A stretch of DNA of 61,542 nt, the filler included. It is 5 parts of 5 records of this genome, joined end to end, with 100 filler letters (N's around TTAATTAATTAA, not from the genome) between each part and the next. Parts side by side here need not be neighbours in the genome. Positions count along the whole stretch, not along the records: positions 28,683 to 44,992 come from SRR31156797_17871; 4 more parts are not named here. One strand, 5' to 3'. The position numbers and the translations under genes were made by a program. Shown here piece after piece: positions 34,893 to 57,263 of this stretch. A model generated the notes under the pieces. That model ran no database searches. It was not told the DNA's origin and worked only from the letters and a program-made list of their open reading frames with translations. Each line of letters opens with the position of its first letter. Positions within the stretch are counted from its first letter, which is position 1.

Positions 34893-35726
34893 ATGGAAAT
34901 CTTTATTCGCAACCAGCTTTATAAAGGCCTACTAAAAGCCGCGGTCCTCGATTGGGCGGGAACCGTGGTCGATTACGGATGTATCGGACCCGTGGCGGTT
35001 TTTATCGAAATATTCCGAAAATACGGCGTCGAAGTCAGCCTGGCCGAAGCCAGGGGTCCCATGGGTCTGGCCAAAAAAGACCACATCAGGGCGATGTGCG
35101 CCATGGATGACGTCGCCCGAAAGTGGGAAGAAGCCCATGGGCGAAGGCCGAATGAATCGGATGTGGAAAAAATGTACCCCGAAACCGAACAGATGATGGT
35201 TGAAAGCCTGTCGAAATATGCGGATCCAATCCCCGGAGCGGTCGAAACTATAAAAGCTTTCAGGTCCATGGGTCTGAAAATAGGCACTACCACAGGGTAC
35301 ACCCGGCCCATGGTTGAAATACTGGCCCCGGCCGCGGCTAAAAAAGGATACATCCCGGACGAAGTCATCTGTTCTTCAGACGCCCCCAAGGGCAGGCCTT
35401 ATCCATTCATGTGCTACCTGAATGCAATCAAACTCGAAACATACCCTTTTGAAGCTATGGTCAAGATAGGCGACACCATAGCGGACATCCAGGAGGGCCT
35501 TAACGCCGGCATGTGGACCATTGGTCTGACCCGGACCGGCAACGATATCGGTCTTACCGAAGAGGAGACCATGGCCCTGCCTTCAAATGAATTAAAAGCG
35601 AGGCTGGCCGAAGTGGAAGCTTCATTCAAAAATGCCGGCGCCCACTACGTCGCTGAAGGAATCTGGGATTGCCCTCTGATCATCGCCCGCATAAACGAAA
35701 GACTCGCCGCCGGCGAAAGGCCCTGA
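34893..35726 (+). CDS. phnX: phosphonoacetaldehyde hydrolase (phosphonatase)
   Basis: HAD motif DWAGTVVDYG, PMGLAKKDHI (Schiff-base Lys), GRPYP, KIGDT..DI.EGLNAGMW. Confidence 0.92.
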   Translation: MEIFIRNQLYKGLLKAAVLDWAGTVVDYGCIGPVAVFIEIFRKYGVEVSLAEARGPMGLAKKDHIRAMCAMDDVARKWEEAHGRRPNESDVEKMYPETEQMMVESLSKYADPIPGAVETIKAFRSMGLKIGTTTGYTRPMVEILAPAAAKKGYIPDEVICSSDAPKGRPYPFMCYLNAIKLETYPFEAMVKIGDTIADIQEGLNAGMWTIGLTRTGNDIGLTEEETMALPSNELKARLAEVEASFKNAGAHYVAEGIWDCPLIIARINERLAAGERP

Positions 35727-36007
35727 CAGGCTTCATTCTTTATCTTCAATATTCATTATCTTTATCTTCATGTAATGCGGGGGTGCTCCCCCTCGCCTGC
35801 GGCCTATTTATTTCTTTATTTAATTCTTTAATAAAGACACCCAAGTTTCAAAAAAATAAGATGAAGGGCCGGCCGGCAAAAGACGTTTAAATATATTTTT
35901 TTTGCTGTTCCTCCTTACTTATATTGAATAAAAAATGGGTGTCAAAATATATTTCTTAATTCCCATGTCCTACTTTTACTATGATTATTGCTTGCATTCT
36001 TCTTGAT

Positions 36008-36023
36008 TGTTTGCTATCAAACA
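36008..36023. promoter_or_regulatory. putative MarR operator
   Basis: Inverted repeat TGTTTG-CTAT-CAAACA 5 bp before the probable marR ATG. Confidence 0.5.
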
Positions 36024-36028
36024 TTCGC

Positions 36029-36466
36029 ATGCGAACAAAATCTTCGAAACCCAAATACTTAATTTGCTCACTAACCTCGCTTGCGGCCAGAAAAATGGCG
36101 GCTCATTACTCACAAGTGCTAGCCCCATTTGGTTTGACCGCTCAACAGGTTATGGCCATGAACGTATTATGGGGCGAAGAAGGCCTAAGCCTGGGGGAAT
36201 TCGCCCGCAGAGCCGAAATAGGCAAGGCCGCGGCCACGGCCATGATCAAGCGCCTTGAAGGCATGGGACTCGTCGTCACCGGTCCCCACCCGGGCGACGC
36301 CCGTCTCAACGTCATAAAAGTCACCCCCATAGCCCGGGAACTGGCCCCGGAAGTCAGGGGAATCCTGGACGATATGGAAAAAAAGATCAGAGAAGCCATA
36401 GGCGAAGAAGACCTTAAAATAATGCTCCGAGGTCTTTCCGCCATATGCAAGCTCGATTTGAAATAG
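36029..36466 (+). CDS. MarR-family transcriptional regulator
   Basis: GLTAQQ..., IKRLEGMGLV...DARL winged helix. Confidence 0.88.
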   Translation: MRTKSSKPKYLICSLTSLAARKMAAHYSQVLAPFGLTAQQVMAMNVLWGEEGLSLGEFARRAEIGKAAATAMIKRLEGMGLVVTGPHPGDARLNVIKVTPIARELAPEVRGILDDMEKKIREAIGEEDLKIMLRGLSAICKLDLK

Positions 36467-36501
36467 GACTGATTGGATTAAGAATTATTGAGGTGAATCA
36501 C

Positions 36502-37185
36502 ATGCAAGCTGAAAAAATTCTGTCGGCGGCCCGGCAAAAAAAACAGGCCGCCTTATCCGAATATGAGTCAAAGTTGCTGCTGGCCGAATACGGAATCCCG
36601 GTAACCCGCGAAGGGTTGGCCCGCAGCAAGGACGAAGCAATGGCGCTGGCCCGCGAAATAGGTTTTCCCTTGGCCGTCAAAGCGTGTTCTCCAGAACTCA
36701 TGCATAAGAGCGAAGGAGGCTGGATTGAGCTTAACATAAAGAATGAAGCTGAATTAACCCAGGCTTTTGAAAACATAATCAGTAAAGCCGGAGACGCCAT
36801 TGACGGGGTTTTGATTCAGGAAATGGTCTCGGGGCAGCGTGAACTTGTTGCGGGATTAAACCGCGACCCCCAGTTCGGACCATGCATAATGCTCGGCCTG
36901 GGCGGAGTAATGACCGAAGTATTAAAAGACACAGCGTTTCGAATGGCGCCCATTGACAAAATAGAGGCCCGGGACATGGCGGACCAACTGCGCTGTCGCT
37001 CAATGTTGGATGAATTCCGCGGCCAGGCGCCGGCCGACATGGACGCGGTCTGCCGCACCCTGGAAGCGATCGGCCGAATCGGCCTTGAACACGAAACCGT
37101 TGCGGAAATAGACGTTAACCCATTGATAATCGGGAAAGACGGCCGCGTGGTCGCTGTAGACGCGCTCGTCGTTTTAGACGGCTAA
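36502..37185 (+). CDS. acdB: ADP-forming acyl-CoA synthetase beta subunit (stand-alone ATP-grasp)
   Basis: RBS GAGGTG; LSEYESKLLLAEYGIP, HKSEGG (phospho-His), DPQFGP, EIDVNPL. Confidence 0.9.
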   Translation: MQAEKILSAARQKKQAALSEYESKLLLAEYGIPVTREGLARSKDEAMALAREIGFPLAVKACSPELMHKSEGGWIELNIKNEAELTQAFENIISKAGDAIDGVLIQEMVSGQRELVAGLNRDPQFGPCIMLGLGGVMTEVLKDTAFRMAPIDKIEARDMADQLRCRSMLDEFRGQAPADMDAVCRTLEAIGRIGLEHETVAEIDVNPLIIGKDGRVVAVDALVVLDG

Positions 37186-37306
37186 CACCAGGCCATTCAG
37201 GGTGAATTTCAGACCGGTCATTACCGGTAGTATTAACTATATTTTGGGGGACAGTCGCCGGCCGACGCTCATTCCCATGCAATATTCGAAAGGCTATCAC
37301 TTCAAA

Positions 37307-38770
37307 ATGATTACAAATATAGAAGAAAGCCCGCTTTATCGCATTGCCGATCCCAGAAACCTCGCCTTTTACGGCGCTTCCAACAGCGCCCGTTCCATGG
37401 GCTCCAATTTATTAATGTCCACACTGGAAATGGGATACAAGGGGACCATTTACCCGATCCATCCCAAGGAAAAAGAAGTTCAGGGATTCAAAGCCTATAC
37501 CAGCATTCTGGACGCCCCGGAAATACCGGATGCAGCCGTTATGGTCCTGCCGACCAAACTGGTCAACAGCGCCCTGGATGAATGCGGCAGAAAAGGGATT
37601 AAATCCGTAATTATCGTCACCGCTGGCTTCAAGGAAGTCGGCGGCGACGGCCCCCGACTACAGAAGGAAATTGAAGAAACCGCTGACAAATATGGAATTC
37701 GCATCTTAGGCCCGAACTGTATTGGAGTAGCCAATCCCCATAAAAGCCTGAACACCACTTTTGTACCCTATGAAGGCAAACCCGGCTTCATCGGCCTGGC
37801 TTCACAGAGCGGCAGCTTTGTAACCCAGATGTTCAACTACCTGTCTCGTTACGGCCTTGGGTTCAGCACTGCCTTCAGCGTCGGCAATGAAGCCAACGTA
37901 GATATCGTGGACGGAATGGAATACCTGGCGCTCTGCCCGAATACAAAAGTAATCGGGCTTTATATAGAAGGCATCAAGCGGGGCCGGGAATTTGTTGAGG
38001 CGGCCAGGGCCATTGCCCCAGACAAGCCGATTGTGGCCCTGTATGTGGGCGGCAGTGAAACCGGAAAAAAAGCGGGATTTTCCCACACCGGATCCCTGGC
38101 CGGTCCGGATGAATTATATGAAGGCGTCTTCCGGCAGAGCGGAATCATCAGGGCGCATTCAATCAACGAACTTTTTGATTATTGCTGGGTGCTGGGATCG
38201 CTTCCGCTCCCGCGCGGCAATAGAGCAGTCGTCCAGACTCATTCCGGCGGCCCCGGCGCCGCGGCCGCGGATTCATGCGGCCGGGCAGGCCTTGACCTTC
38301 CGCCTCTTTCCGCGGAAACAAAAGAAAAACTGTCTGATCTCGTTCCCCATACCGGCAGCCTTAACAACCCGGTGGATGTGACTTTTTCTAGAAACCCGCA
38401 GGATTTTTACACTACGATTCCGGAGATTCTGCTCCAGGATCCGAATGTAGACATGCTTATGGCCTACTACATGACCCCGGATGCCGTCGTCCAAAGAAAC
38501 ATCGAACAAATGGGGGTGTCCGGCGATAAGGCGGTCGCCGAAGCAAAAAAAGTCATGCAGGCATTCGCCGCTTCTGTATTGAAAATGGTTAAAGAACAGG
38601 ACAAGCCCATAATCGGGTATACCTGGCGGGACCTGAACGAGAGTTTCACAAAGGAACTCATTGACGGCGGCTTTCCGGTTTTTCCCGACGCCCAAAGGGC
38701 CGCCAGGGCCATGGGGGCCATGGTCCATTATAAAAAACTGCGCGACAAGATCCTTTCCGCCGATAAATAA
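37307..38770 (+). CDS. acdA: ADP-forming acyl-CoA synthetase alpha subunit, paralog 1
   Basis: CoA-binding domain, GPNCIG, SQSGS, GNEA, SHTGSLAG (phospho-His), NPVD. Confidence 0.9.
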   Translation: MITNIEESPLYRIADPRNLAFYGASNSARSMGSNLLMSTLEMGYKGTIYPIHPKEKEVQGFKAYTSILDAPEIPDAAVMVLPTKLVNSALDECGRKGIKSVIIVTAGFKEVGGDGPRLQKEIEETADKYGIRILGPNCIGVANPHKSLNTTFVPYEGKPGFIGLASQSGSFVTQMFNYLSRYGLGFSTAFSVGNEANVDIVDGMEYLALCPNTKVIGLYIEGIKRGREFVEAARAIAPDKPIVALYVGGSETGKKAGFSHTGSLAGPDELYEGVFRQSGIIRAHSINELFDYCWVLGSLPLPRGNRAVVQTHSGGPGAAAADSCGRAGLDLPPLSAETKEKLSDLVPHTGSLNNPVDVTFSRNPQDFYTTIPEILLQDPNVDMLMAYYMTPDAVVQRNIEQMGVSGDKAVAEAKKVMQAFAASVLKMVKEQDKPIIGYTWRDLNESFTKELIDGGFPVFPDAQRAARAMGAMVHYKKLRDKILSADK

Positions 38771-38801
38771 CGACCTGAAGCACTAAGCGGAGATTGGAGC
38801 C

Positions 38802-39290
38802 ATGAACACTTTTTCTTCATTTACAGATTTTTTTAAAAGACTGTTCGATCTTTTTCGCGGCCCGACTTTTTACATGACTTTCAGGCGAACAGATCCAAAA
38901 TTCAGGGAAAAAGTAATCCTGACCGTTTCCATGGCCAACAACTGCGGGGCCTGAACATCCCATCACCTCGCCGAGGGTCGGCGTTTGGGGTTGACGAGTG
39001 AAAACATGGAAGATCTCAACCTTCTCGATCCATCCAGGTTTGAGCACAAGGAATGGGTCGCTCTCAGGTACGCCCGTGATTACACCTATTTGGGAGGTCA
39101 TGAGCCTGCCGGCCAGGTTCGGGACGACTTTATCAGGCTCTACAGCCGGCAAGAACGGGAAGACATTCTCAAACTGATTCGCATGATGAGGTTTGCCAAT
39201 TATTTCAGCAATCTCGTATTCAAGCGCCCCTGGCGCCGGAACAAAGATGATGCGGAAGCCTGTTCGATTGGGAATTTTGAAGGCCGATAA
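38802..39290 (+). CDS. AhpD/carboxymuconolactone-decarboxylase-like protein with in-frame UGA (probable selenoprotein, CxxU)
   Basis: RBS GGAG + ATG 38802; REKVILTVSMANNCGA-UGA(38952-38954)-TSHH...LGLT...ALRYA...FANYFSN; 162 aa on read-through; SECIS-like hairpin right after UGA. Confidence 0.82.
38955..38993 (+). promoter_or_regulatory. bacterial SECIS-like hairpin
   Basis: CGCCGA-GGG-TCGGCG (38969-38983), G-leading loop 20 nt after UGA; lower pairing ATCCC/GGGGT. Confidence 0.7.
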
Positions 39291-39299
39291 ACAGGCGCC

Positions 39300-40793
39300 A
39301 TGAAAACAGAAAGGCCCAGCATGTTGAACTCAATCGAAGAAAGCCCTCTGCACGACATCGTCTCCCCTAAAAGCATAGCCTTGATGGGCGCCTCAACCGG
39401 TTTTTCCATGGGTACTGTCATCCTCAACCGGCTTCAGGAAATCGGTTTTGAAGGAAACATATATCCGGTTCATCCCAAAGCGGATGAAATTCGGGGTCTG
39501 AAGGCCTATGCAAGCATCCTGGATGTGCCGGAACCGCCGGACCTGGCCGTTATGGTGCTCCCCGCGCCCACAGCAGTTCAAACATTGGAAGAATGCGGCC
39601 GCCGGGGAGTTAAAAACGCGGTCGTGGTCTCGGGAGGATTCAGGGAAGTCAAGGGAGTAGGGGAAGACCTGGAAAAGGATCTGCTTGAAACAGCCGGGCG
39701 GCACAACATGCGGCTAGTCGGGCCGAATTGCCTGGGCGTGGCCGCTCCTCGTTATAAAATGAACACCACCACTTTCCCCTTGTTCAGCAAGCCCGGTTCC
39801 GTCGGCCTGATTTCCCAGAGCGGCAGTTTTGTAACCCAGATGTTTCAACAGGTTGAAAGCCTGGGCATCGGGCTAAGCGCGGCCTTCAGCACAGGTAATG
39901 AATCCGACCTCGACCTGGTGGACTGCCTGGAATACTTAGGCGCCTGCCCCCATACCAAAGTCATCGGCCTATACCTTGAAGGCATAAGGCGGGGACGCGA
40001 CTTTGTCCGAGTCGCCCGATCAATAGTCCCTGACAAGCCCGTGGTCGCTTATTATGTCGGCGGCAGCGAAACCGGCAGACGGGCCGGTTATTCACATACC
40101 GGCGCCCTGGCAGGCCCGGACGGTCTTTATGAAGGCGTATTCAGGCAGGCCGGAATAGTCCGGGCCCGGTCCGTAATGGAATTATTCGACTTTTGCGCCG
40201 GCCTCAGCCTGATGTCCCCGCCGGCCGGATCGAGGGTTGCCGTGCTGACCGATTCCGGAGGCCCGGGAGCGGCGGCCGCCGACGCCTGCGGCCGGACCGG
40301 CCTTGAACTCCCCGGCTTCTCGCCTGAAACCGGGGAAAAACTTTCCCCTTTCATTCCCGCAACCGGAAGCGTAAATAATCCGGTCGACCTGACTTTTTAT
40401 AAAAATCCGGATGATTATACGACCAACATTCCGGAAATACTTTTGCAGGATCCGAACGTCGACATGCTGCTCATGTATTTTCTAATGCCTCGTGAAATAG
40501 TATCCATAGCCATGAAAAGTATGGGCGTGCCTGCGGACCAGGCCGAAGCGGAAAGCGACAACATGTTGAAAAACCAATACAAGTCGATTGCCGATTTGAT
40601 TAAAAACAACCCAAAGCCCATTATCGGGTACACATTTCGCAGCCAGGAAGATCCGGGTATTAAAGTGCTGACCGAATGCGGACTCCCTGTTTTTCAGGGC
40701 GCTGAAAGAGCGGCCCGGGCAACGTACGCCCTGGCCGCTTATACCGATTTAAGAAATAAGGTTGCTAAATCATGGAACGCAAGCAACACCTGA
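39300..40793 (+). CDS. acdA: ADP-forming acyl-CoA synthetase alpha subunit, paralog 2
   Basis: Clearly homologous to 37307-38770 (IEESPL, GPNCLG, SQSGSFVTQMF, SHTGALAG, IPEILLQDPNVDML). Confidence 0.9.
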   Translation: MKTERPSMLNSIEESPLHDIVSPKSIALMGASTGFSMGTVILNRLQEIGFEGNIYPVHPKADEIRGLKAYASILDVPEPPDLAVMVLPAPTAVQTLEECGRRGVKNAVVVSGGFREVKGVGEDLEKDLLETAGRHNMRLVGPNCLGVAAPRYKMNTTTFPLFSKPGSVGLISQSGSFVTQMFQQVESLGIGLSAAFSTGNESDLDLVDCLEYLGACPHTKVIGLYLEGIRRGRDFVRVARSIVPDKPVVAYYVGGSETGRRAGYSHTGALAGPDGLYEGVFRQAGIVRARSVMELFDFCAGLSLMSPPAGSRVAVLTDSGGPGAAAADACGRTGLELPGFSPETGEKLSPFIPATGSVNNPVDLTFYKNPDDYTTNIPEILLQDPNVDMLLMYFLMPREIVSIAMKSMGVPADQAEAESDNMLKNQYKSIADLIKNNPKPIIGYTFRSQEDPGIKVLTECGLPVFQGAERAARATYALAAYTDLRNKVAKSWNASNT

Positions 40794-40814
40794 GTTGATT
40801 ACTTAACCTAACGA

Positions 40815-41558
40815 TCAAATTATTGCATTATCAGGATTTAACAAGCTTTTATCATGCATGGTGAGAATCCGGCCTGATTTTTCCTTTAGCAAAACCGCGC
40901 TGTTGTAAGCCTGTTCCACATCCAGGTGGATGCCGGGCGGTATGACCACAGGCGCCTTGCTGGAAACCCAGGCCCCTCCGCCGGCGTCGGTAAAATTTTC
41001 ATCAATGCAGCAAAATCCGGCAATACCGACCGTTCCCTGTTCCGTTTCCACCAAAACCGACTGGCAGCCGCGGCTGTGTCCGGGCGTGAATAAAGTCGTC
41101 ACGCCCGGCGCTGCTTCGACAGTTCCCTGGACAAGTTCGATATTCAAATCCTTGTATAGGTTTTGGTGATAGGCGCCTGCGAACAGGGGATGGGGATCTT
41201 CGGCGTATTCCATTTCACTTTTTTGAACGATAAACCTGGCATTGGGAAGCAGCTTCCCATTGGCGCAATGGTCGTACATCAGGTGAGTGACGACGACGTC
41301 CTTTATTTCGTGGAGTTCGGAGTCAACTTCGCGCAAGGCCGTTTCCAGACTCTTTACATTTCTTACCGGCTCGCTGCGCAAAGGCCCCATGTCTTCAGCC
41401 GTTCCGCTGGTATCCACCAGTATTTTATTTCGGCCCGACTTTAATAAAAAGCACGGGCAGGGCAGCCATTCCGATTTTCCGTAGTTGCGAAGATATGTCA
41501 TGCGCCCCAGGTCGATAACCAGTTCGGAGCAGACCAGGGGATGAATTGTCCATTTCAT
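40815..41558 (-). CDS. metallo-beta-lactamase-fold hydrolase (AHL-lactonase-like)
   Basis: RBS GAGG; LVDTS, THLMYDH (HxHxDH variant), VQKSE, TPGHSRG, terminal H-D. Confidence 0.85.
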   Translation of the reverse strand: MKWTIHPLVCSELVIDLGRMTYLRNYGKSEWLPCPCFLLKSGRNKILVDTSGTAEDMGPLRSEPVRNVKSLETALREVDSELHEIKDVVVTHLMYDHCANGKLLPNARFIVQKSEMEYAEDPHPLFAGAYHQNLYKDLNIELVQGTVEAAPGVTTLFTPGHSRGCQSVLVETEQGTVGIAGFCCIDENFTDAGGGAWVSSKAPVVIPPGIHLDVEQAYNSAVLLKEKSGRILTMHDKSLLNPDNAII

Positions 41559-54262: not shown

Positions 54263-56575
54263 TTACTGCACGCTGACCAGGGTTCCTTCCATGCCGGTCT
54301 TGATGTTGGCCGCATTGGCTTCGTCCGTATCGATATGCATGGCCAGACGATAATCCGGATGGACCCGCACCAGGACATCACCGAAGATGAGCGTTCGTTC
54401 CCCTTCCACCCGGACCATTACCAGATCCCCATCCTTCAGCCCGAACGAAAGGGCATCTTCAGGGGGCATATGTATGTGACGGAAGGAGCAGATGACGCCC
54501 TTGGGAATCGAACACGCCCCCTGGGTTCCTTCGAGTTTCAATCCGGGACTGCCTTCTATGGATCCGGATGCCCGGATCGGGGCTTTCACCCCTAATTTGA
54601 ATTCTTCCGTCATGGAGATCTCGACCTGGGTTTCTTTTCTTCTGGGCCCCAGCACCCTGACCCGGTCAACCCGTCCCTTGGGCCCCACCAGATTGACGGT
54701 CTCCTGGCAGGCGAATTGGCCCGGCTGGGAAAGATCGGAGCGGTGGGTCAGCTGAACGTCATCCCCAAATAACATCGCGATTTCCTCTTCGGCCAGATGA
54801 ACGTGATGGGCTGAGACCTCGATGGGGAATTTTTTTTCTTTTTTCTTTTGAATCACCTGGGAAACATTTTCCCGTCCCAGGGCACGAATTGTCTCCCGGG
54901 CGATCATTCGGCCTTCGTCCGCCGGAACCACCAGCACTTTTATCCCGGCGTCCTTTTCTGAGATCTCAACCGGTCCATCCAATTCAGATGGTACAGCGTT
55001 ATTCTTTTTGTCATCGAGCTCGACCCCCATGGGAAACAGTCCCTGGCAGGCCAGCCCCCTCACCCAGGCGCTTTTTTCGGCAGTTCGGCCGGTGAAAACC
55101 AAGGCATCCAGTCCTCCCAGGGCCGAGGTATAGGCCCCGATATATTTTCTTATCCGGTAACAGAATGCCTGGATCGTGAGCTGCGCCCGTGAATCACCTT
55201 TATTGGCGGCCACTTCAATATCATTGAGGTCACTGGAAATCCCGGACAGTCCCTTCAATCCGCTCTGAAGGTTGAGCAGCTCATCCACTTCATCCAGGGA
55301 CAACCCTTTCTCCCGGCACAGATGGATAACGATGGAAGGATCCATATCCCCGCACCGGGTATCCATCATCAAGCCGGCCAAAGGGGTCATCCCCATGCTG
55401 GTGTCAACCGAACGGCCGTGATCAATCGCGCACAGGGAGGCGCCATGATCCAGATGACACGTCACCAGTTTCAATTCGCGATAATCTTCTTTCAGATACG
55501 CGGCGGCTTGGAGCATTGCGTAGTTATGCGAAATGCCATGAAATCCGAATCGCCGGATTTTATCATTCTCAAAATATTCATGGGGAAGCCCGTAAACGCA
55601 GGCATGGGGCGGCATTTTTTGATGAAAAGCGGTATCAAAGACAGCCACCTGGGGAACATTGGAAAAACACCGCTGACTCATTTTAATAACCATAAGGTTC
55701 GGCGGATTGTGCAGGGGGGCCAGCCTCGCATATTCATCAATATCACTTAAGACACGGTCATCAATAAGCACGGCATGACCGTACTTGTCCCCTCCATGCA
55801 CGACCCTGTGACCGATTGCGCTGAGGTCATCCATGTCCCGGATAACCCCATGCACGGGATCGACCAGCACACCGATCAGGCCTTTAAAGGCGTCTTCATA
55901 ACCGACCAGCCCCAGCTCCTTTTTAATCACACCTTTGGGAGTCACCGCGGTGATATAATACGTCTTGTCACCGGACCTTTCGATGACTCCGGTCGTATTC
56001 CCGGATTTATCCCCCGTATTGAAAAAACTGTACTCAATGGATGACAGGCCACAATTGAGTACCAGGATCTTCTGGGGAGTCGTTGTGGACAACGCCAGGC
56101 CATAGGGATCTGTTTGGCTTTTCCAGGCATCACTCACCCGGGCTTGTTCTTCCTCATTCTCCTGACGGCTTTTCAAACGGGCGGTTATGGTTTGCGCAAG
56201 CACTTTCACCGCCTGAACATTAACCGCCACAAAAGAGGAAAACACATCCTGGGGAATAAGAAAAAGATGACATTTACTAATGGCCAGGACATCGGCACTG
56301 GTGGGTTCGCCGGTAAGCAGGGACATTTCGCCCAGAATATCCCCCGGCTTCAGCAGACCGAGCCGAATACGCTTTTCCGCTTCTCCGGAAATGACAGCTT
56401 CGGCTTCGCCATCCAGCATCACACCTAAAAACTTCCCCGGCTGGCCGAACTGTATGATAACGTCTCCGGAAGCATATGACCGCAGATGAGACGCCTCGAT
56501 CAACCGGTTTAGTTCTTCCTGAGAGAATCCGCCGAACAACGGAATCCCGGCTAAAAATTCAGCTATCTGTTCCAT
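54263..56575 (-). CDS. cNMP-binding domain + acetate-kinase-like domain + PduL phosphotransacylase fusion (770 aa)
   Basis: RBS GGAGG, ATG 56575; GDILGEMSLLTGEPTSADV (cNMP); HRVVHGG, APLHN, DTAFH, GFHGISH (AckA); SAHHVHL, LSQPGQFA, RHIHM, MHIDTDEANAA (PduL). Confidence 0.92.
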   Translation of the reverse strand: MEQIAEFLAGIPLFGGFSQEELNRLIEASHLRSYASGDVIIQFGQPGKFLGVMLDGEAEAVISGEAEKRIRLGLLKPGDILGEMSLLTGEPTSADVLAISKCHLFLIPQDVFSSFVAVNVQAVKVLAQTITARLKSRQENEEEQARVSDAWKSQTDPYGLALSTTTPQKILVLNCGLSSIEYSFFNTGDKSGNTTGVIERSGDKTYYITAVTPKGVIKKELGLVGYEDAFKGLIGVLVDPVHGVIRDMDDLSAIGHRVVHGGDKYGHAVLIDDRVLSDIDEYARLAPLHNPPNLMVIKMSQRCFSNVPQVAVFDTAFHQKMPPHACVYGLPHEYFENDKIRRFGFHGISHNYAMLQAAAYLKEDYRELKLVTCHLDHGASLCAIDHGRSVDTSMGMTPLAGLMMDTRCGDMDPSIVIHLCREKGLSLDEVDELLNLQSGLKGLSGISSDLNDIEVAANKGDSRAQLTIQAFCYRIRKYIGAYTSALGGLDALVFTGRTAEKSAWVRGLACQGLFPMGVELDDKKNNAVPSELDGPVEISEKDAGIKVLVVPADEGRMIARETIRALGRENVSQVIQKKKEKKFPIEVSAHHVHLAEEEIAMLFGDDVQLTHRSDLSQPGQFACQETVNLVGPKGRVDRVRVLGPRRKETQVEISMTEEFKLGVKAPIRASGSIEGSPGLKLEGTQGACSIPKGVICSFRHIHMPPEDALSFGLKDGDLVMVRVEGERTLIFGDVLVRVHPDYRLAMHIDTDEANAANIKTGMEGTLVSVQ

Positions 56576-57263
56576 GGATACTACCTCCCAAAGAAGTAAT
56601 TCATATATTAAAAACAAACGACATGGGAGACACTTTGATATCATTCGGATGACCTGAACGATTCACTGATATGACGTGGGATATCGACATCATTTTTGAA
56701 TCATTCAGGATAAATATATCAAATTCATCATCGGCATTCAAGGATCTGTCGAAACGCTTAGTTCAATTCCCGTTCACTGGGGCAACGGGGAAGATTATCC
56801 ACGGGCATCCCATTCAGTCTGTCCTGTGGGCTTATTCTTGGCAAAAAAACGGATAAACAAAAGGTCAGTTATGCCCACGTCACAGAGTGGATTGAGCGGG
56901 GGATGCTCTTTCTTCGCAACATATTTTTCTATATCCCTGTCTTGATTACTAAAATAGAGCCAAAGAGGAAGCATCATGGAAACCGTTCCAGAAGCTGCAT
57001 GAAATACCACATCATGCTTTTGAAAGGCGTCTTTTCAGCTTTTCCGCCCTGGATGTTATCTTCATCATTGAAACCCCAGGTAATTTGCTTTATAAAAAGA
57101 GGATAGCCTTTTGCAACGGGATGAAGCAGCCCCGGGATTACCAGAACTAATTTCCAGCACGCCTGACGCCATTTTGAAACAACCATGTCACAATCACCTT
57201 TGGAACCCTGGTGGCTGAGGTTAACAGAAGAATATCAGAAAGGATCGAGGGCTGGATCATATC

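Follow-up and report, generated by a model that had tools for sequence, protein, structure and literature searches.

Introduction

Selenoproteins that carry a CxxU motif (U, selenocysteine, Sec) on the AhpD/CMD fold (CMD, carboxymuconolactone decarboxylase) have been catalogued since 2005. In that year, the Sargasso Sea survey introduced two new selenoprotein families, 'AhpD-like protein' (COG2128, CxxU, 27 sequences) and 'CMD domain-containing protein' (PF02627, CxxU, 4 sequences) (PMC1088965). The Global Ocean Sampling survey reported 299 'AhpD-like 1' and 70 'AhpD-like 2' selenoproteins (pfam02627, CxxU) (PMC2398784). Reviews of 2022 and 2026 list five families, namely AhpD-like TIGR01926, CMD-like PF02627, the distant AhpD homologue NF041047, AhpD-related NF041238 and the ArsM/AhpD fusion NF041537 (PMC9312934, PMC13188914), and BSepDB holds an AhpD-like family page (PMC13326102). 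In this work, we analyzed a stretch of DNA of 61,542 nucleotides (nt), hereafter the window, along which all positions are counted. We describe a gene at 38802-39290 on its plus strand which very probably is one intact gene for a 162-residue selenoprotein with a general redox mechanism, belonging to the AhpD-like (PA0269-type) branch of the CMD superfamily. The original prediction, made from the letters of the sequence, had taken it for a Sec-containing thiol oxidoreductase that annotation miscalls, belonging to a known class. The literature agrees as to the class (PMC1088965, PMC2398784, PMC13188914), to which the window protein adds a member, and the reading as a whole is supported by the conservation of the TGA codon, the Cys homologues, a hairpin and the fold.

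The published CMD and 'AhpD-like 2' selenoproteins resemble the window protein in their Pfam domain, in the CxxU motif, in a bacterial selenocysteine insertion sequence (SECIS) with a conserved G in the apical loop and in having mostly Cys homologues (PMC1088965, PMC2398784, PMC13188914). These entries are defined by domain and motif alone and are compared here by description; the passages that describe them make no mention of a tail cysteine or of a PEMT fusion. Among proteins of solved structure, PA0269 of Pseudomonas aeruginosa (PDB 2O4D, 2IJC, 7XW1) is the best match in both fold and sequence. Its catalytic two-helix motif likewise lies near the N-terminus, and its proton relay, Glu36, Cys48, Tyr50, Cys51 and His55, corresponds to Glu118, Cys130, His132, Cys133 and His137 of Mycobacterium tuberculosis AhpD, MtAhpD (PMC3141380). 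The relay of the window protein stands at identical numbers, but PA0269 has Cys51 in place of Sec, Tyr50 in place of Ala and no tail cysteine, and the identity is just 16-20%. A weak peroxidase activity in vitro has been reported for PA0269 (PMC3141380). MtAhpD (PDB 1KNC, 1GU9) follows the same relay logic (Glu118, Cys130, Cys133, His137); its second motif cysteine, Cys133, is exposed, attacks AhpC and cross-links with it, and Cys130 is partly buried (PMC6626918). It differs from the window protein in chain topology, with the motif at the C-terminus, and is a weak fold match (E 0.4-0.8, template modelling (TM) score about 0.47); ahpC adjoins ahpD in M. tuberculosis, whereas none was found among the 47 window open reading frames (ORFs) scanned. 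The debrominase Bmp8 (PDB 6OHI, 6OHJ) shares the CMD fold and a catalytic Cys pair with the window protein (profile E 2.5e-11, TMq 0.61-0.63), but it is a Cys enzyme of a bromopyrrole pathway, and genes of such a pathway do not lie near the window gene. Finally, the gamma-CMD family is described as being without the CxxC relay (PMC3141380), and the CxxU motif of the window protein argues against membership in the gamma-carboxymuconolactone decarboxylases (PcaC type).

Results and discussion

Gene structure and read-through frame

Under translation table 11, the plus strand shows two ORFs in the same frame, 38802..38954 (50 residues, from ATG) and 38985..39290 (101 residues, from TTG), divided by one in-frame TGA at 38952-38954, which is codon 51 counted from the ATG at 38802. 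With TGA translated as U, 38802-39290 yields a single product of 162 residues in which U51, in the context SMANNCGAUTSHH, is the sole recoded codon. The features of the gene are as follows:

38802..39290, plus strand: complete selenoprotein ORF of an AhpD/CMD-fold oxidoreductase, 162 codons and a TAA stop (frame, PF02627, AlphaFold2 model, codon changes)
38789-38792 and 38796-38799, plus strand: two GGAG Shine-Dalgarno-like motifs, read directly, with spacers of 9 nt and 2 nt to the ATG

The gene upstream stops at 38770 and the gene downstream starts at 39300, so that the read-through ORF occupies the gap between its neighbours. In these respects the original prediction, which had reported a lone 101-residue fragment from 38985 in the ORF track, a GGAG ahead of the ATG at 38802, a single TGA at codon 51 within a 162-residue read-through and an ORF filling the space between two acdA genes, was borne out at its coordinates, with two GGAG motifs being found.

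Conservation of the TGA codon

Scanning one genome per species yielded three loci in Spirochaetota metagenome-assembled genomes, with 53-55% identity over residues 1-156 and TGA at codon 51 in 3/3. A metagenome scan with a five-sequence alignment as query added 23 further loci. Locus L033, which is frameshifted, and locus L034, whose contig begins past the site, were left out of the TGA count; in the window and the other 24 loci the aligned codon is TGA throughout, and never TAA or TAG. When 401 sampled Spirochaetota genomes were searched in a stop-aware manner, 31 proved to have an orthologue at E <= 4e-29, each with exactly one internal TGA (31/31), and the six stop-free matches were one short partial copy and five distant paralogues with 28-32% identity. 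With all sources pooled, 55/57 hold a Sec-type gene and TGA occupies the codon in 55/55, which represent 47 distinct sequences. Across the family, the protein is conserved on both sides of the TGA (39-54% identity over residues 1 to ~156). As for the origin of the window, its class-I aminoacyl-tRNA synthetase shows 30-38% identity to the best match in 149/151 Spirochaetota genomes; the window very probably comes from a phylum other than Spirochaetota, and the family would then be present in at least two phyla.

An independent sequencing run from a different study, X2, contains a ~96%-identical relative on one contig of 16,950 nt at a depth of ~49 (run X1 is probably the window's source and is not counted as independent). 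The TGA is kept in X2, which answers the concern, already raised in the original prediction, that a sequencing error might have created it. Over the 651 bases compared, X2 and the window show 24 differences, and both the TGA and the hairpin are free of them. Of the changed codons of the ORF, 13 carry synonymous and 5 non-synonymous substitutions; those upstream of the TGA comprise 4 synonymous changes and one Thr to Ser replacement. This preponderance of synonymous changes on either side of the TGA indicates that both halves are under purifying selection as protein.

These data bear directly on the view that an ordinary CxxC AhpD-like gene carries a nonsense mutation here, either as a true pseudogene or through an error of assembly or sequencing. 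Gene callers do split the gene, and the related locus L033 does have a frameshift. Nevertheless, this view is effectively refuted by (i) the presence of TGA, never TAA or TAG, at the same codon in all 55 loci, spread over 47 distinct sequences and at least two phyla, (ii) its retention in an independent assembly that is 96% identical, and (iii) the purifying selection on both sides of it. Concerning L033 itself (metagenome contig, match 182-535), the frame is lost just before the CxxU motif, and either this copy is a frameshifted pseudogene or the assembly is at fault.

Cys homologues and fragmentary library entries

An exhaustive HMMER search of 1.84 billion representative proteins gave 231 matches at E <= 0.001, the best 150 of which were classified by what they show at the Sec position:

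Spanning the site with CxxC: 83 of the best 150 of 231
N-terminal fragments, all ending exactly at residue 50 (...C-x-x): 16 of the best 150 of 231
C-terminal fragments, none beginning before residue 52: 40 of the best 150 of 231
CxxW: 2 of the best 150 of 231
Other residues at the site, in distant CMD proteins: 9 of the best 150 of 231

The comparison with homologues that the original prediction had called for thus gave TGA in 55/55 close loci, Cys in 83 of the best 150 of the 231 library matches, and conservation on both sides. The starts called for the C-terminal fragments are spread over residues 52 to 88, and the fragment pattern is the typical debris of a selenoprotein family after ordinary gene calling. 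In keeping with the expectation that standard annotation would truncate the gene, its closest relative is represented in public protein sets by a C-terminal fragment of 101 residues alone, and a word-indexed search with the single protein gave one fragment of 101 residues and nothing else. The named public relatives are Cys forms only, entered as 'AhpD family alkylhydroperoxidase' or 'carboxymuconolactone decarboxylase family protein'. One further library protein, P0006, has a predicted length of 4538 residues with 28 separate CMD-like stretches (E 4e-68) and is either an extraordinary repeat protein or an artefact of assembly or gene calling.

Two library proteins, P0007 and P0027, which were read as protein only, have Trp at the Sec position (NNCYAW and NDCGKW). 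W is what a gene caller set to genetic code 4 or 25 prints for TGA, and these residues are likely TGA codons read under one of those codes by the source pipeline. Taken at face value, they would favor a genome-wide reassignment of TGA (code 4 or 25, to Trp or Gly), or its read-through without Sec. We consider this very improbable. In the window, 13 of the 36 Pfam-supported genes end at TGA, several with long open extensions past the stop, and in the Spirochaetota orthologues TGA occurs at codon 51 and again as the terminator of the gene; together, these uses exclude a genome-wide reassignment. Besides, the site is that of the catalytic Cys of a CxxC motif, at which homologues carry Cys, and the full Sec machinery is present in orthologue-bearing genomes.

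A conserved SECIS-like hairpin downstream of the TGA

The original prediction had pointed to a hairpin, CGCCGA-GGG-TCGGCG, with a G-leading loop 20 nt after the UGA, and the following feature is present at that place:

38969..38983, plus strand: SECIS-like hairpin with a 6-bp stem, CGCCGA (38969-74) and UCGGCG (38978-83), and a GGG loop (38975-77)

The hairpin begins 15 nt downstream of the TGA, and 20 nt separate its first loop G from the A of the TGA; the minimum free energy (MFE) fold extends the hairpin by a lower stem over about 38956-38987. Since the 47 distinct Sec-form sequences align gap-free from the TGA, the region could be compared across the family. We scored as a hairpin at least 5 consecutive pairs closing a loop of 3-6 nt, with G in one of the first two loop positions and the loop start 18-28 nt from the U; both this definition and the three register groups given below were set post hoc, and the counts, coming from related sequences, are not independent events. 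Such a hairpin follows the true TGA in 43/47 sequences, as against 564/5781 (9.8%) of the other in-frame codons of the same genes, and 30 distinct hairpin sequences are represented. For the +9..+45 segment, the MFE averages -12.11 kcal/mol as compared with -9.84 kcal/mol for synonymous recodings, and 0/200 recoded sets reach the observed value (lowest -11.03). The cleanest control is provided by five Cys-type paralogues from Spirochaetota genomes, which have TGC at the site in 5/5 and the hairpin in 0/5.

The hairpins were sorted into three codon registers and counted on gapless sub-alignments, in each of which the paired cells are compared with those obtained when the partner strand is slid, the compensatory swaps being given last:

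Group A6, 18 sequences: 90.5% of cells paired, 44-57% when slid; CG<->UA 9:9
Group A7, 17 sequences: 87.4% of cells paired, 22-59% when slid; AU<->CG 11:5
Group A8, 7 sequences, including the window: 89.8% of cells paired, 41-71% when slid; GC<->UA 4:3, GC<->CG 4:3

As the groups were picked by register and the sequences are related, these pairing figures are supportive and are not probabilities. In some of the compensatory swaps, the change is synonymous on one arm and alters the amino acid on the other.

Selenocysteine machinery

In the three orthologue-bearing genomes examined, selA, selB, selD and tRNA-Sec all score above curated cut-offs (3/3), with 300-310 bits for selB and 72-74 bits for tRNA-Sec. 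SelB and tRNA-Sec would decode the TGA at 38952-54 as selenocysteine, directed by the hairpin at 38969-83 acting as a bacterial SECIS within the coding region. Two observations on these genomes may be added. In Spirochaetota genomes, a single cluster contains tRNA-Sec, selA and selB in head-to-tail order (G003:C2:1682640-1685998, L035/L004; G002:C72:3963-7326), and selD in orthologue-bearing genomes has one in-frame TGA, so that SelD would itself be a selenoprotein there.

Fold and active site

The Pfam CMD domain (PF02627) matches residues 28-72, a segment that spans the TGA, with 35.2 bits against a gathering score of 23. An AlphaFold2 model built on a 44-sequence alignment is all-helical (predicted local distance difference test score, pLDDT, 92.9; predicted TM score 0.86), its last ~17 residues being of low confidence; in it, residues 49-61 form a helix that has Cys48 as its N-cap and residue 51 in its first turn. 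The best Foldseek matches in the PDB are AhpD proteins of the PA0269 type (7xw1, 2ijc, 2o4d; probability 1.00, TM 0.61-0.73), followed by other 'peroxidase-related' CMD proteins, Streptococcus pneumoniae AhpD and the debrominase Bmp8, and a profile search of the PDB also finds 7xw1, 2ijc and 2o4d, at E about 1e-14. The relay of the window protein reads E36-x11-C48-x2-U51-x3-H55, with these residues, whose conservation is given for the family alignments A2 and A4:

38907..38909, plus strand: Glu36 (GAA), proton-relay glutamate; invariant in alignment A2 and at least 90% in A4; equivalent to Glu36 of PA0269 and Glu118 of MtAhpD
38943..38945, plus strand: Cys48 (TGC), first residue of the CxxU motif and presumed resolving Cys; invariant in A2 and A4; equivalent to Cys48 of PA0269 and Cys130 of MtAhpD
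38952..38954, plus strand: Sec51 (TGA), presumed nucleophile; TGA in 55/55 Sec-type loci; Cys or Sec without exception in A2 and A4; at the position of the exposed Cys133 of MtAhpD
38964..38966, plus strand: His55 (CAC), proton-relay histidine; invariant in A2, at least 90% in A4, Arg in L030 and L032; equivalent to His55 of PA0269 and His137 of MtAhpD

The UGA does fall at the second Cys of the AhpD/CMD motif, where the original prediction had put it, and U51 aligns with Cys51 of PA0269. In L030:3843-4313 and L032:1398-1868, the CxxU motif and the hairpin are kept and the relay His55 is replaced by Arg (C-L-L-U-G-N-K-R).

Given that the second motif cysteine is the exposed, attacking residue in MtAhpD, Sec51 fits the role of nucleophile and Cys48 would be the resolving residue. 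We propose that the protein acts as a thiol/selenol-disulfide oxidoreductase with the relay Glu36...Cys48-Gly-Ala-Sec51...His55. First, Sec51 would attack an oxidised partner, be it a disulfide or sulfenate of a peroxiredoxin-type protein or a small oxidised substrate. Second, Cys48 would resolve the mixed intermediate to leave an intramolecular Se-S bond. Third, an upstream reductant would recycle the enzyme, with a cysteine of the C-terminal tail, Cys154, as a candidate third relay residue. The data show the gene structure, the conserved TGA and hairpin, the Cys homologues, the fold and the catalytic signature; that Sec is inserted in the window's organism, which way electrons flow, what serves as partner and as reductant and what Cys154 may contribute is inferred.

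Tail cysteine and methyltransferase fusion

The C-terminal tail contributes one more feature to the protein:

39261..39263, plus strand: Cys154 (TGT), in the flexible C-terminal tail ('EACSIG'); conserved in Sec-forms; tail of low pLDDT

A cysteine 97-106 residues after the Sec is found in 47/47 Sec-forms as against 2/11 of the full-length Cys-forms examined, and Cys154 may be a third redox residue. In one metagenomic clade (L020, L021, L023-L029 and L031; for example L021:3983-4972), the CMD(CxxU) module, which retains the tail cysteine, is part of a fusion of ~330 residues with a PEMT/ICMT-type membrane methyltransferase (PF04191, E 1e-10 to 4e-12). Literature searches for a PEMT/ICMT-selenoprotein fusion, judged by their search listings, found nothing relevant. 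In L027, the frame ends early, at 266 residues.

Relation to curated families

Two curated AhpD-type families with Sec/Cys alternation, NF053654 ('YciW-related (seleno)protein') and NF041047 ('GSU3128 family (seleno)protein'), are matched weakly by 40 and 31, respectively, of 44 aligned family members. The window protein itself lies below both cut-offs (25.2 vs 310 bits for NF053654 and 16.2 vs 110 bits for NF041047) and is a member of neither, and it has no match at E <= 0.01 to TIGR01926, NF041238 or NF041537. None of the 44 aligned relatives reaches the cut-off of a curated selenoprotein model, their matches being weak E-values only. With TIGR00778 (ahpD_dom), which 42 of the 44 members match at E <= 0.01, the window protein scores 26.2 vs 27.8 bits, just under the cut-off. 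The subfamily of the window protein is, apparently, uncurated and Sec-only among close relatives.

As a consequence of the split gene calls, public protein sets contain the window gene and dozens of its orthologues solely as fragments of 55 and ~100 residues. A selenoprotein is therefore missing from redox inventories of these anaerobes, the 31 of 401 sampled Spirochaetota genomes among them, and annotation pipelines are without a model for it. The principles of Sec decoding are unchanged by this finding. The subfamily is unusual among AhpD-like proteins in its Sec-only close relatives, its invariant tail cysteine and the fusion of one clade to a membrane methyltransferase; these are the parts worth following up, and they offer handles on the function of AhpD-like selenoproteins, which have been abundant in surveys since 2005.

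Points against and alternative functions

Several points weigh against the reading proposed here, in addition to the post hoc definition of the hairpin and the two Trp-bearing library proteins. First, the 66-nt hairpin region of the window, taken alone, folds no better than its dinucleotide shuffles (z +1.37; 185/200 shuffles fold at least equally), so the significance of the window hairpin comes from the comparative data and not from its own fold. In addition, no Rfam family matches the window, its hairpin included, at gathering scores, and when 38880-39080 was scanned against Rfam with permissive settings, a chance match to a long non-coding RNA (E 3.3) was all that appeared. In the recoding test, just 8/47 sequences reach a fraction <= 0.05 individually, because the conserved A-x-G-x-R peptide itself favors GC-rich pairing. 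Second, the window is without a sel gene, a tRNA or a second convincing selenoprotein candidate, and we infer the Sec competence of its organism from the conserved TGA, the hairpin and purifying selection. Third, with regard to mechanism, the first motif cysteine has been reported as the more important one in Burkholderia thailandensis AhpD (PMC6626918). Fourth, with regard to function, none of the 47 window ORFs scanned has an AhpC-TSA or peroxiredoxin domain and no neighbour gene is conserved across the family in 46 loci; any partner, and even a role in peroxide defence, is putative.

The behaviour of the window hairpin region against its shuffles, the tendency of the A-x-G-x-R peptide to pair and the availability of a TTG start at 38985 could be explained by two separate small proteins, an N-terminal peptide of 50 residues and a C-terminal protein of 101 residues from that TTG, the hairpin being a mere by-product of coding. 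This explanation seems to us hardly credible: with the chain split, Cys48 and His55 of the AhpD catalytic helix hairpin would end up in different proteins and the nucleophile would be lost, the C-fragment starts of the homologues are scattered from residue 52 to 88 and reveal no conserved internal start, and the RNA hairpin has undergone compensatory changes and is not seen in the Cys paralogues.

A different possibility is that the selenoprotein is real but does not reduce peroxiredoxins as an AhpD would. The protein might act together with its tail cysteine on a small-molecule or metalloid substrate, either in reductive dehalogenation, like Bmp8, or in preparing or carrying a chalcogen or metalloid for a methyltransferase. 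The thiol-dependent debrominase Bmp8 is indeed among the closest solved relatives (E 2.5e-11; TMq 0.61-0.63), the clade L020-L031 is fused to a PF04191 methyltransferase, and the family shows weak matches to ArsM/AhpD and MduS methyltransferase selenoproteins, such fusions being listed in published catalogues. The lack of a nearby ahpC and of any conserved neighbour, together with the tail cysteine in 47/47 Sec-forms, points the same way. In contrast, the full AhpD proton relay is conserved, PA0269-type structures are the top matches in fold and sequence, the fusion is confined to one clade, and the window protein stands alone amid acyl-coenzyme A (CoA) synthetase genes. On balance we regard this function as possible but not likely, and retain the AhpD-like oxidoreductase.

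More tentatively still, one may ask whether these proteins form a distinct, uncurated and obligately Sec-containing family in at least two phyla, defined by E-x11-C-x-x-U-x3-H and an invariant cysteine on a flexible tail. As the occasional fusion to a PEMT/ICMT-type membrane methyltransferase suggests, its S-Se-S relay would not serve peroxide defence but would reduce, or pass on for methylation, a substrate containing sulfur, selenium or a metalloid, and in the window's lineage it might have been recruited to an acyl-CoA synthetase operon under a MarR regulator (OhrR-like?), perhaps keeping CoA or an enzyme thiol reduced. We think it unlikely that all of this holds.

Gene neighbourhood in the window

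The selenoprotein gene lies within an apparent operon of the following composition:

35981..40793, plus strand: apparent operon around the Sec gene (domains, short gaps, no terminator-like site)
35981-36466, plus strand: MarR regulator at the head of the apparent operon (domain match)
36445-37185, plus strand: acd beta (ATP-grasp) subunit (domain match), overlapping the MarR gene
37202-38770, plus strand: acdA-like alpha subunit, first copy (domain match)
39300-40793, plus strand: acdA-like alpha subunit, second copy (domain match)

Apart from the overlap of the MarR and acd beta genes, the gaps measure 17, 31 and 9 nt. No terminator-like site was found on the plus strand between 35733 and 40332, and a promoter and terminator scan of 35700-41000 gave counts not above those of shuffles. 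The stretch 36445-40793 holds one ATP-grasp beta and two paralogous acdA-like alpha subunits of a nucleoside-diphosphate-forming acyl-CoA synthetase, with the selenoprotein gene between the alphas, and all these acd subunits score below the acetate-CoA ligase equivalog cut-off. The top NCBIfam match of the MarR protein (35981-36466) is OhrR, an organic-peroxide sensor, at 43.8 vs 200 bits, far below the cut-off; an assignment as OhrR is not usable at this score.

Neighbourhoods in the family are clade-specific: 9/46 loci have MutS2 upstream, 8 have an acyl-CoA-dehydrogenase-like gene downstream and 5 a DnaJ-like gene, also downstream; the acd context of the window is matched by no other family locus. 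Mechanical inspection of the window for other read-through genes gave 50 candidates, none of which, besides the TGA at codon 51, has a redox-motif context; two others, on checking, are ordinary adjacent or extended ORFs. Elsewhere in the window, at 54263-56644 on the minus strand, an ORF of 793 residues encodes an unusual three-part fusion, which brings together a cyclic-nucleotide-binding domain, a complete acetate/propionate kinase domain and a PTAC phosphate propanoyltransferase domain.

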